A DNA stretch of 64,000 nt from Eledone cirrhosa (GCA_964016885.1 OZ024741.1:291524001-291588000); one strand, 5' to 3'; shown: positions 27,309-39,000, counted from the first letter of the stretch. Notes: generated by a model not told the origin, from the letters alone. Translations and numbers: made by a program.

Positions 27309-28063
27309 TATACATATATATATATATATATATATATATATATATATATATATATATATATATATATATATATATATATATATATATATATATATATATG
27401 TATATACATATATATATATATATATATATATATATATATATATATCTCTGTCTATCTCTCACTGTCTCTCTCTCTCTCTCTCTCTCTCTATATATATATA
27501 TATATATATATATATATATATATATATATACATACATATACATATATATATATATATATATAAATACAAATAAAGATTCAGCGAGAATCAAATTTCGGCG
27601 GGCAGGAAAAGCGAAGGGAAACGCAAAAATCAGAAATGGTACTGGCAAAGTGCTCAATAGTTAAAAACCAGAGCTAAACAATGTGTTAAGAAGCCGTGCA
27701 AAACTGAAAAGAGGGTAAGAAGGCATTAACCACCCAAGCCAAAAACCAAATCAAGCTAAACAGGTCAAAACAAAATAAATGATAAAAAATAAAGAAATAT
27801 ATTTAAAAAAATAGAGGTGTGACATACGAGTTGTGATATATTAGTAAAGAGGAAAAGAAAATGCTGACGAATTTTTTCCAGTGAAAAATAGTTTAATTAG
27901 GAATAAGTATAAATTAGTAATAAGTAGTAGTTAGTATTCACTTTTAGTTTTAAGTTTTTACCGGTTGTACTAATATATATATATATATATATATATATAT
28001 ATATATATATATATATATATAAAGAGAGATGTGAGAAAAACCACAGAAACCATCTCAACTGTA

Positions 28064-28099
28064 CTTTTGAAAAGCAGAAGAACTGCGAAACCGGTAAAG
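28064..28099 (+). ncRNA. Minimal type I HHR, U3:A8 variant
   Basis: CTT-TTGAAAA-GCAG aagaa CTGC-GAAA-CCGG-TA-AAG, with palindromic ACCGGT stem III. Confidence 0.6.
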
Positions 28100-28272
28100 G
28101 AACCGAGTAAATATATATATTTTTTTTAAAATAAGACTCTAGTTGCATTTTCGATTTCATCTTTTTTTCTTTATACTTTCACTCGTGTAGGACAACTCAG
28201 TTATTTTTAGTTTTGTCCAAAAACCTCACTTTCTAATATATATATATATATATATATATATATATATATATA

Positions 28273-29200
28273 TAAATGGAATAGAATGAAACGAAATTTC
28301 ATTTCTCACTCTTAGTACGGCACTTACTTAAATGTAAGTATGTATGTATACGTACATATATATGTATACAGACGTACAGTAGTATATATATATATACGCA
28401 CATACACACACATATATATGCACGTATCGATTTACCGAACATTTATTATAATGCTCGGTTTGTTCGTTTGTAAACAAACAAACAGCCCGAATTACGCCGT
28501 ACAGTGTTTAGGCATCCACGTCACCTTTTTGTTCAACACTGTCACAGGAACGATGTACTAGTTTCAAGCTTATTAGCTATCGTCAGCATCGTATACCTTC
28601 CCGCCTGATGGTTGAACGTCTGAAAGTATATACTATCCTTATGCATATTAATGGCCGAGCAGCCTAATTTGCATATCGAGTGAGTTCTATCGGCTGGGCA
28701 CACCGAAGACGATAAATGTAATAGAATGAAACGAAATTTCATTTCTCACTCTTAGTGAGTGCCGTACTAAGAGTGAGAAATGAAATTTCGTTTCATCCTA
28801 CTCCATTTATCGTTTTCGGTGAGCCCGGCCGACTGAACTCACTCGATATGCAAATTAGGCTGCTCGGCCGTTAATATGCATAAGGATAGTATATACTTTC
28901 AGACGTTCAACCATCAGGCAGGAAGGCATACGATGCTGACGATAGCTAATAAGCTTGAAACTAGTATATCGTTCCTCTGTCAGTGTTGAACAAAAAGGTG
29001 ACGTGGTTGCCTAAACACCGTACGGCGTAATTCGGGCTGTTTTTTTTTGTTTACAAACGAACAAACCGAGCATTATAATAAATGTTCGGTAAACCGATAC
29101 GTGCATATATGTATGTGTGCATGTATGTATGTATATATATACATACTACTGTACGTCTGTATACATATATGTATGTACGTATACATACATACATACTTAT
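28273..29200. mobile_element. Family A element, head-to-head palindrome with two HHRs (28551-28591 minus, 28931-28971 plus)
   Basis: Arms are reverse complements meeting near 28760. Both carry CGATG-CTGACGA..GAAACTAGTA. Partial family A copies lie at 37460-37790 and 56290-56590. Confidence 0.85.
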
Positions 29201-35400: not shown

Positions 35401-36001
35401 ATATATGTGAATATAGACATAGAATATTCGAAAATATTCTGTATGTTTATAATAAACATTTTGAAGACCTAATCGCTATAGAATAGAATACGTCACGTAT
35501 TACAATTAGATTCTCGACAAAAGCAAGGGAAGTAATCTACGCGTTTCATTCTTGTTAGAAATCATCAGGACTACATATCCAGTGCTTTTATCGAGAATGA
35601 CACAGCTAGAGACTTATAGAATACTTAGCTGTGTACAGGAACTGGTTTGAAAGAGCGGTTGCCGGTCCGGCAGAAATTAGAAATTGGAATAAATGCTCTG
35701 AAATAGCGATATATATGTGAATATAGACATAGAATATTCGAAAATATTCTGTATGTTTATAATAAACATTTTGAAGACCTAATCGCTATAGAATAGAATA
35801 CGTCACGTATTACAATTAGATTCTCGACAAAAGCAAGAATATTCTATGTCTATATTCACATATATATCGCTATTTCAGAGCATTTATTCCAATTTCTAAT
35901 TTCTGCCGGACCGGCAACCGCTCTTTCAAACCAGTTCCTGTACACAGCTAAGTATTCTATAAGTCTCTAGCTGTGTCATTCTCGATAAAAGCACTGGATA
36001 T

Positions 36002-36044
36002 GTAGTCCTGATGATTTCTAACAAGAATGAAACGCGTAGATTAC
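36002..36044 (+). ncRNA. Minimal type I HHR (plus-strand copies at 36002, 36312, 36622, 36932)
   Basis: Stem I GTAGTC/GATTAC, CTGATGA, GAAA, palindromic ACGCGT. Predicted cleavage after A36038. The 36312 copy reads CTCATGA. Confidence 0.88.
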
Positions 36045-39000
36045 TTCCCTTGCTTTTGTCGAGAATCTAATTGTAATACGTGACGTATTCTATTCTATAG
36101 CGATTAGGTCTTCAACATGTTTATTATAAACATACAGAATATTTTCGAATATTCTATGTCTATATTCACATATATATCGCTATTTCAGAGCATTTATTCC
36201 AATTTCTAATTTCTGCCGGACCGGCAACCGCTCTTTCAAACCAGTTCCTGTACACAGCTAAGTATTCTATAAGTCTCTAGCTGTGTCATTCTCGATAAAA
36301 GCACTGGATATGTAGTCCTCATGATTTCTAACAAGAATGAAACGCGTAGATTACTTCCCTTGCTTTTGTCGAGAATCTAATTGTAATACGTGACGTATTC
36401 TATTCTATAGCGATTAGGTCTTCAAAATGTTTATTATAAACATACAGAATATTTTCGAATATTCTATGTCTATATTCACATATATATCGCTATTTCAGAG
36501 CATTTATTCCAATTTCTAATTTCTGCCGGACCGGCAACCGCTCTTTCAAACCAGTTCCTGTACACAGCTAAGTATTCTATAAGTCTCTAGCTGTGTCATT
36601 CTCGATAAAAGCACTGGATATGTAGTCCTGATGATTTCTAACAAGAATGAAACGCGTAGATTACTTCCCTTGCTTTTGTCGAGAATCTAATTGTAATACG
36701 TGACGTATTCTATTCTATAGCGATTAGGTCTTCAAAATGTTTATTATAAACATACAGAATATTTTCGAATATTCTATGTCTATATTCACATATATATCGC
36801 TATTTCAGAGCATTTATTCCAATTTCTAATTTCTGCCGGACCGGCAACCGCTCTTTCAAACCAGTTCCTGTACACAGCTAAGTATTCTATAAGTCTCTAG
36901 CTGTGTCATTCTCGATAAAAGCACTGGATATGTAGTCCTGATGATTTCTAACAAGAATGAAACGCGTAGATTACTTCCCTTGCTTTTGTCGAGAATCTAA
37001 TTGTAATACGTGACGTATTCTATTCTATAGCGATTAGGTCTTCAAAATGTTTATTATAAACATACAGAATATTTTCGAATATTCTATGTCTATATTCACA
37101 TATATATCGCTATTTCAGAGCATTTATTCCAATTTATATATATATATATATATATATATATATATATATATATATATATATATATATATATATATGTATA
37201 AAGAGAGATGTGAGAAATGTTGATATATATGTATAAAGAGAGATGTGAGAAATGTATAAAGATATGTATAAAGAGAGATGTGAGAAATGTTTTTAAAAAT
37301 AAGACTCCAGTTGCATTTTAGATTTCTTCTTTCTTCTTATTTTCTTTATACTTTCGCTCGTGTAGGACACCTCGGTTAATTTTCATTTTATCAAAAAAGC
37401 CCACTTTCTAATATATATATATATATATATATATATATATATATATATATATATATATATAAATGGAATAGAATGAAACGAAATTTCCTTTCTCACTCTT
37501 AGTACGGCACTTACTTAAATGTAAGTATGTATCGATACGTGCATATATATATGTGTGCATGTGTGTGTATATATATATATACTACTGTACGTCTGTATAC
37601 ATATATGTATGTACGTATACATACATACAAACTTACATTTAAGTAAGTCCCGTACTAAGAGTGAGAAATGAAATTTCGTTTCATCCTATTCCATTTATCG
37701 TTTTCGGTGTGCCCGGCCGACTGAATTCACTCGATATGCAAATTAGGCTGCTCAGCCGTTAATATGCATAAGGAAAGTATAATATGCATTAGTAAAGAGT
37801 TGGAGCGGAAGTGAGAAAGAGAAAGAAAAACTCGGCCAAAATACTGAGCTGGCATTTTTTTATCGACCTTGAAATGATGAATGGGTAATTTGAGCTCGAC
37901 GGGTTTGGAAACGTATACCATACCGCAAAACATTCTGTTTGATATTCTAACGGCTCTGCTAATTCACAGTCGTGACCTCATTTACAGGTAGTTTAAATAC
38001 AAACATGACCAAGCTTCTTTTAATGTTAATTAGCCCATGGAAACAATACAGTTTAACAAGAAATTTATAGAATCCTTTGGTGGAGATCTCATTTAAAGAG
38101 AATAAAACAAATGATGCATGACTAATAATCCCAAGGTAATTGACGAAAACTTTGTAAATCTATTTAACTAAATAAAATGGCAAACACACGCGTGTGTGTA
38201 TGTGCGTGTGGGTGAGTATGTGTGTTTGTGTGTGTAGGTGTGTGTGTGATTGGGCGAGTGTGTGTGCGTATGTGTGTGTGTATGTGTGTGTGTAGCTGTG
38301 CGTGCGTTGTTGTGTATGCATGTGCATGCCCGCGTGCCCCGTGTGTGTGTATGTGTGTGTGAGTGTATGTGTCTATATGCGTGTGTGTATGTATTTGTGT
38401 GTAGCTGTGCGTGTATAGTCGTATATGTGTGTGCATGCACGCGCGCCACGTATGAGGGGATGTAAAATGAATGTACATATGTAAGTGTGTAGATATGTGT
38501 AAATCTGTGTGTTTTTGCGTAAATGTGATTGTAAGTATGTATGTGTGTGTGTAAATGTGCGTGTGCATGGGTGTGTAAGTATGTATGTGTAATTGTGTGT
38601 CTATATTCACATGTCCTTGACCTTCAAAAATACGTTGATCCGCCATTACCTTCATACAATTCCAATACAAGAGGAAGGAAAGAACAGACCTCTGTCAGTT
38701 TAAAGGATGAGCGTTCCAGTTGCCCGATCAACGCTAGAAACAGCTTATGAAATCAACGTTTAGGGGACTGAGCATTCCACAGACTTGTGTATCACTAACT
38801 AAATTTTCATAGCGATTCAGCGAATAACGGGTACAATCCGTTTATTGGGTTTCCAAGCGGCTTCTGTCAACCCAATTTCACTGATAGGACATGAGTCGAT
38901 CCGAGGCTCCATATTTCCAAGATAGCACGCAGTGGGTTCGAACCCGGAATATAATGATTGCATAATGATAAGCGAACTTCTTAATATTTTAACGTCTCAA

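Follow-up and report, generated by a model that had tools for sequence, protein, structure and literature searches.

Introduction

Metazoan retrozymes without long terminal repeats (non-LTR retrozymes) are described as non-coding tandem units of 150-450 bp with a GC content below 45-50% and one type I hammerhead per unit, dispersed through the genome and devoid of LTRs (PMC7229834, PMC7761336). Penelope-like elements (PLEs) are described as having tails of 30-40 bp, an inverted truncated copy and (TA)n targets (PMC8557442, PMC3846280); an in vitro assay showed a PLE protein cleaving AT-rich DNA on both strands and extending each of them, with its reverse transcriptase (RT) starting at two internal RNA sites, the gap between which equals the tail (PMC11167929). 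Penelope-like mobilisers and circular templates have been proposed for retrozymes (Cervera and de la Pena 2020, PMC7229834; PMC7761336; Li, Clavereau and Pollet 2026, bioRxiv 10.64898/2026.07.22.740005). In the sections of the preprint that treat it, this link is drawn from the shared ribozyme, co-occurrence and likeness to the pseudo-LTR (pLTR), not from insertion ends (bioRxiv 10.64898/2026.07.22.740005), and one review, in its passages on mobilisation, states that no motif points to the retrozyme partner (PMC7761336). The origin of PLE inverted ends and tails, and the enzyme that moves animal retrozymes, are presented as open questions in the relevant sections of PMC8557442, PMC3846280 and PMC7761336. 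Here we describe a hammerhead ribozyme array of 310-bp units in Eledone cirrhosa (GCA_964016885.1 OZ024741.1:291524001-291588000; this 64,000-nt stretch is the window, and genome searches covered the 3.0-Gb assembly). The array was probably inserted by a Penelope-like RT-endonuclease that primed one RNA from both ends of a single break, after the insertion site had been duplicated.

Structure of the array and its hammerhead unit

The initial annotation had recorded a 4.8-kb hammerhead array and had missed its internal inversion. The array has two head-to-head arms of 11.4 and 4.2 units (15.6 in all) that meet at position 35837:

32299-35837, RNA sense on the minus strand: arm 1, 11.4 units with 11 intact hammerhead cores; on the outside its 3' end falls on the short site (phase 139), at the unit's own ATATATAT
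35837, unstranded: inner head-to-head junction, 1-nt overlap, phases 11 and 109
35837-37135, RNA sense on the plus strand: arm 2, 4.2 units with 3 intact cores and 1 with a core substitution; on the outside its 3' end falls on the long site (phase 167)
36622-36664, plus strand: one minimal type I hammerhead, predicted cut after 36658

The array shows 3 mismatches to its own unit in 4838 bases. The hammerhead at 36622-36664 comprises a stem I of 6 bp, CUGAUGA, a stem II of 4 bp, GAAAC and a palindromic ACGCGT that replaces a full stem III; 14 intact cores were counted in the array by inspecting core, stem I and stem II base by base. By inspection, 7/7 haplotype changes within the hammerhead region preserve the fold. 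The array RNA is predicted to be cleavable by (dimeric) hammerheads. Single-strand folding of the unit gave an alternative core pairing and not the active hammerhead, with a unit more stable than its shuffles (z -4.1); the unit used for folding, and as the genome-search query, carries the one core substitution. The unit has a GC content of ~0.35, and the array is non-coding (no open frame of 150 aa). An autonomous Penelope-like element at this position was considered and ruled out, as the array has no RT plus GIY-YIG frame and no coding capacity.

Among public runs, none of RNA was listed as containing the unit, which does not bear on its expression. Closed 310-nt contigs occur in sequencing runs of unrecorded kind, which tandem DNA would explain as well as circular RNA. 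In runs X3, X4 and X5 (three other organism labels and studies, kind unrecorded) the 310-nt unit is present as a closed contig with 0-1 differences, and little else of the window is covered.

Empty and filled copies of the insertion site

The left flank of the array has a second copy in the window, and this copy ends in a TA run without an array:

27567-27793, unstranded: A1, a high-copy dispersed repeat, left segment of copy 1; paralogue at 31893-32119, 96% between copies
27804-27972, minus strand: A2-prime in copy 1, a Penelope-like family's truncated 3' end that joins (TA)n at a private junction; at most 89% to ends beside GIY-YIG frames
27973-28021, unstranded: empty site, plain (TA)24, without remnant of the 310-bp unit
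31893-32298, unstranded: left flank of copy 2, A1 plus A2-prime; differs from copy 1 at 9 positions over the first 178 nt and at 2 over the final 227

Copy 1 (27562-27972) and copy 2 (31888-32298) are 96.8% identical (416/432 aligned columns equal), and their differences are unevenly spread (9/178 in the first part, 2/227 in the remainder). The flank segments all belong to high-copy repeats (3810, 1702 and 1384 first-look candidates in the genome), so that mere likeness is no proof, and paralogy was therefore argued from private junctions and shared derived bases. In the 3.0-Gb genome, the 24-base junction between the cut-off A2-prime repeat and (TA)n has exactly two occurrences, both of which lie in the window, and among 18 other A2-prime-type repeats compared, none of the 16 readable at this point continues in the same way. 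Relative to 18 other members of the respective family, the two copies have in common 4 derived bases in 222 columns of A1 (with 4+5 private ones) and 5 in 164 columns of A2-prime. Thus, the left flanks are true paralogues that arose by local duplication. They are separated by 3.3 kb of unrelated sequence, parts of which are exactly matched by single contigs of run X1.

Neither 12-mers nor 14-mers of the 310-bp unit are present in 27301-28400, which covers the copy 1 site and its surroundings; the plain (TA)n that the initial annotation had seen there is confirmed as (TA)24. In copy 2 the array does occupy the same run, beginning at its left edge. Set against the left-flank duplication as a whole (3/4838 versus 11/810 per lineage), the array is far younger (Fisher p 1e-7). 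The array is most likely a young insertion into the TA run of one copy, later than the duplication.

The right side of the site is less orderly:

28022-28236, plus strand: B, right segment of copy 1, a second Penelope-like family's truncated 3' end; at most 89% to ends beside RT/GIY-YIG frames
37136-37196, unstranded: (TA)30 right of the array; a target duplication is unreadable within the TA run
37188-37291, plus strand: rearranged junction of copy 2, where the 21-mer that follows the TA run is present three times in place of ~80 nt of family B
37285-37411, plus strand: remainder of the family B end in copy 2, 87.5% to copy 1

The right flank of copy 2 lacks the ~80 nt that correspond to 28040-28120 of copy 1, and the alignable rest is 87.5% identical, which is below the 89-95% of either copy to 19 unrelated family B members. 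Across 119 columns there are 15 private differences (6+9) and 1 shared derived base. An independent origin of the two right flanks is unlikely, given that the junction at which they start is matched exactly at just one further place in the genome and that the single shared derived base is absent from 33 other copies. Divergence along the block (9/178, 2/227, 15/119) is heterogeneous (chi-square p 1e-5), which rules out one simple duplication age for the whole block. On our reading, ~670 bp lying between TA runs were duplicated at an earlier time, and ~230 nt left of the site were probably converted afterwards.

The initial annotation had extended the duplicated block from 27562 to ~28350. Its left part is upheld by the 96.8% identity and the private junction; its right part is rearranged, and the last ~70 nt (28275-28350 and 37462-37530) are how a ~440-bp hammerhead repeat normally ends, as it also does at 1021 and 1710. 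Because the 440-bp-repeat insertions at 28275 and 37462 differ internally, the duplication probably stops in the preceding TA run, and it most likely ends at 28236-28274 in copy 1 and 37411-37461 in copy 2. Collinear flanks, which the earlier work had proposed to check by alignment, were found on the left; the right side fails in this respect, with ~80 nt gone and a 21-mer triplicated, and this tells in part against the single insertion proposed there.

The order of events could also be reversed, such that the array predated the duplication and was then lost from copy 1 via TA-tract recombination or gene conversion. TA lies on both sides of the array and a clean loss would leave no trace, and the uneven divergence suggests sequence exchange between the copies beside the site; yet the array, with 3 mismatches in 4838 bases, has 0-1 mismatch to arrays on other chromosomes, compared with 2/227 at best in the flanks and 5-13% in their other parts. 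We give very little credence to such a loss, and retain insertion after duplication.

Insertions across the genome

A genome search with the unit gave 356 matches from 38 scored candidates, including near-identical arrays on many chromosomes. Counted by end pattern, one short-end form gave 1190 matches, with some internal units among them, and the long end gave 780 on a single strand; by symmetry we estimate from this ~1,500 insertions genome-wide, in TA runs. The loci read comprised 20 that were BLAST-ranked, the window, and 48 taken in order along contig 1 (0-94 Mb). The contig 1 loci were chosen via long ends and so test long/long pairs in full, but short/short pairs solely where the phase 130 form is concerned; no such restriction applies to the BLAST-ranked loci. 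Before counting, a diverged 65-bp relic in L129 was dropped and the arms of L158, which lie 272 nt apart, were merged by hand; the L032 insertion, clipped by the retrieved stretch, entered the polarity count only, and L147, with four segments, was scored by its outer ends.

Two arms are present in 62/71 insertions, in all 62 with minus followed by plus. One short and one long outer end were found in 61/61 two-armed insertions with both ends read (17 BLAST-ranked, 44 on contig 1). Short ends lie at phases 118-139 (modes 130 and 139) and long ends at 158-172 (mode 165), the ends at 118-126 and 158 being shortened by substitutions close to the end; the modal offset is 35 nt (phase 130 versus 165), and the window array has 139 and 167. 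By hand calculation, the chance of this end rule is 0.5^17 = 8e-6 for the BLAST-ranked set and, conditional on a long end, (2/3)^44 = 2e-8 for the contig 1 set. Outer ends touch TA runs in 120/122 cases, and 5' ends are spread uniformly round the unit (Rayleigh p 0.34).

The suggestion that the left end was primed by microhomology at the monomer's own ATATAT tract is retained for the short end, where every end lies in or just 5' of the tract: 14/61 run into it (phases 136 and 139), 47/61 end at phase 130 or earlier, and the short end sits at the unit's longest AU run (8 nt). It does not extend to the long end, the position of which is not set by homology, since only 1-2 nt of alternating AT are found there.

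The same majority haplotype fills both arms in 37/38 insertions (shuffled mean 5.1, maximum 14; 16 haplotypes, defined on substitutions only). Nine of the 16 haplotypes were found at a single locus, yet fill units of both arms. Arms reach 27 units, and each arm has at least 2 units in 38/61 insertions. Where the inner junction has no insert, at least 2 nt are shared in 24/45 cases (8.1 expected); short inserts occur at 14/59 inner junctions, several apparently copied from the unit.

These junctions bear on whether the inversion arose by fold-back self-priming of one cDNA, or from an antisense template. Fold-back has been suggested for Penelope elements from palindromes at inverted junctions, in the part of PMC3846280 that deals with them, and phases within 20 nt meet at 13/59 inner junctions, a slight excess over uniform (p 0.04). 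Distant phases are nevertheless joined at 46/59, including the window array (11 and 109), and a second arm made by fold-back would share the end site of the first, which was seen in 0/61 insertions. Because no insertion has two like ends, we disfavour this origin strongly, and priming at two different sites remains our preferred account.

The census likewise bears on in-situ satellite growth, on DNA-level spread and on an assembly artefact (a fold-back read, or two haplotypes placed in tandem). No public-run contig was seen to bridge the left junction, an uninformative result as contigs break in these repeats. On the other hand, strand polarity relative to the hammerhead and the two end sites are fixed across 61 loci on many chromosomes, and the two copies in the window are separated by the 3.3 kb of unrelated sequence that run X1 contigs match exactly in part. 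We hold these explanations to be very improbable. A recent single insertion in place of in-situ growth, as first proposed, thus has in its favour the remnant-free paralogue, the younger array, the near-identical arrays on many chromosomes and the outer ends at TA runs.

Probable link to Penelope-like enzymes

The genome holds frames in which an RT is combined with a GIY-YIG domain at the C terminus (6/8 scanned loci, the RT mostly below the Pfam cut-off), two of which have a CX4CxxC linker. Six GIY-YIG loci have the same pair of long and short ends in TA runs, with offsets of 29-33 or 62 nt. Long/short pairing is also found in the flank families (13/13 and 9/11) and in a sister retrozyme (10/13). 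As the flank families and the array all have paired ends, the site is a nest of PLE-type ends. The array family has the features of a PLE footprint: head-to-head arms (62/62), a tail at one end (61/61) and an AT-rich target (120/122 ends).

The sister retrozyme is older, and at L193:332-705, L129 and L208-L232 it is 69-80% like the 310-bp unit; the likeness peaks at phases 59-200, which include both start sites and the next hairpin, and is low at the hammerhead. Phases 59-200 are a candidate protein-binding region. Matches of 69-82% at GIY-YIG loci were examined as a possible partner and rejected, being separate insertions of the sister retrozyme or of another hammerhead family.

Other Penelope-like copies were noted. 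At L198, L199, L204 and the family B loci, a Penelope-like family has a 62-nt tail, beyond the published 30-40 bp. In the window, 26874-27303 is a head-to-head insertion in TA runs with a 33-nt offset and 99% identity to the 3' end of the GIY-YIG elements L205 and L178, and for this reason we regard it as a very young truncated Penelope-like copy. A Penelope-like copy at L205 is duplicated locally (1032-3489 and 7547-10000; 99.8% identical, 6.5 kb apart), and short duplications between TA runs may be common in this genome.

Proposed mechanism of insertion

Insertion by a Penelope-like RT-endonuclease would proceed as follows. The array RNA would be cut by dimeric hammerheads and probably circularised. 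A Penelope-like protein would bind the unit near phases 125-200 and nick both strands of (TA)n. Synthesis from one DNA end would begin at the short site, where pairing with the AU tract of the unit would adjust the register, and from the other end at the long site, a position that the protein would dictate. Both cDNAs would be extended over several units, round a circle or along a multimer, and their 3' ends would be joined by microhomology-mediated end joining.

A circular template is favoured, because single-locus haplotypes fill both arms and arms reach 27 units. A related possibility keeps the enzyme and the double priming, and takes as template a long uncut linear transcript of the donor array, with no circle at this step. 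A variant at L142 mirrored in only the first unit of each arm and a variant pair at L157 present at units 6 and 12 and absent at 18 would fit such a template; unprocessed RNA is moreover the main in vitro substrate (PMC11167929), and the minimal stem III may make cutting slow. In contrast, the 9/16 single-locus haplotypes that fill both arms require a monomer bottleneck somewhere in the cycle, and copying from linear donors only would be expected to shorten arrays each round, whereas arms reach 27 units. We consider a purely linear template unlikely, although less so than the other alternatives considered above, and a circle remains our favoured template.

Several observations weigh against the proposed insertion. 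The empty paralogue is an imperfect record, with uneven divergence (p 1e-5) and a rearranged right flank, and when the array is compared with the well-matched 227-nt tract alone, the age gap is non-significant (p 0.06). Nine of the 71 insertions are one-armed (one of them stops in an assembly gap). The L142 variant is in the first unit of both arms and absent from the second, and L162 switches haplotype within one arm; a single monomer circle does not account for these two loci, which call for a multimer as template, for template switching or for conversion at a later time. Rfam gave no match to the hammerhead at gathering score (best Hammerhead_HH9, E 0.056). As for an autonomous partner, the end of the unit was found in cis at none of 40 GIY-YIG loci (of 150 listed, from 10,595 first-look candidates).

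The stronger proposition, that Penelope-like enzymes carry out coupled double priming on one small circular RNA, with two obligate sites 35 nt apart and the circle copied twice over, we rate at roughly even chances. If true, the arrays would document in the genome how retrotransposition from circular templates proceeds, with the target in its earlier state on view at the paired site. For the mechanism, the family-wide end rule counts most. The paired site adds modestly to it by giving the order of events and by showing that the insertion entered a bare TA run at the edge and left the left flank intact; it is also amenable to genotyping by polymerase chain reaction. The exact target change is unreadable from it because the right side is altered. 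Exact predictions for the existing in vitro assay follow from the strict end rule and the single haplotype per insertion in this large and very young family.

Other repeats in the window

A second hammerhead repeat family, two-armed, with a unit of ~440 bp and an end offset of ~57 nt, is present at 28275-29196, 1021-2100, 37462-37781 and 56290-56596, with hammerhead motifs at 28586 (minus strand), 28936 (plus strand), 1396 and 1838; the copy at 37462-37781 is without the normal right end. A piece of a further hammerhead family, which has stem II in common with the 310-bp unit, lies at 6092-6117 and at L205:3716-3789. Open frames at 19061-20602, 23279-24520 and 62152-63114 (513, 413 and 320 aa) are, at a guess, probably retroelement remnants. 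An abundant short interspersed repeat occupies 30001-30207 and 30629-30735 and has at least 8 more copies in the window.

Comparison with known systems

By its tested sequence features, the array family is a member of the animal non-LTR retrozymes: it has 310-bp units, a GC content of ~35%, one predicted type I hammerhead per unit, a dispersed distribution and no LTR. It departs from retrozyme descriptions in two respects. Those descriptions are of direct tandems, the word 'inverted' being absent from PMC7229834, and the array here is inverted. In addition, its hammerhead is of the minimal PLE-like form; PMC7761336, in its sections on minimal hammerheads, assigns them to the PLE type and suggests that they may act as dimers. 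In the main texts of the open-access literature searched, neither two-armed retrozyme insertions nor a strict pairing of ends was found described.

As in endonuclease-bearing PLEs, so far as these are characterised in the relevant parts of PMC8557442, PMC3846280 and PMC11167929, the copies are head-to-head with a tail at one end, a (TA)n target, a minimal hammerhead, two start sites and no readable target duplication. Unlike those elements, the array has no open reading frame, and both arms are multi-unit (at least 2 units each in 38/61 insertions). For PLEs, the texts that mention the tail call it optional or place it 'often at one end'; here, by contrast, a short end was paired with a long one in 61/61 insertions.

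In LINE-1 twin priming, both target ends prime on one RNA, and the inverted part is joined via microhomology. The array family differs from this in having no poly(A), in its fixed internal starts 35 nt apart, and in that both cDNAs run over the same repeated sequence.

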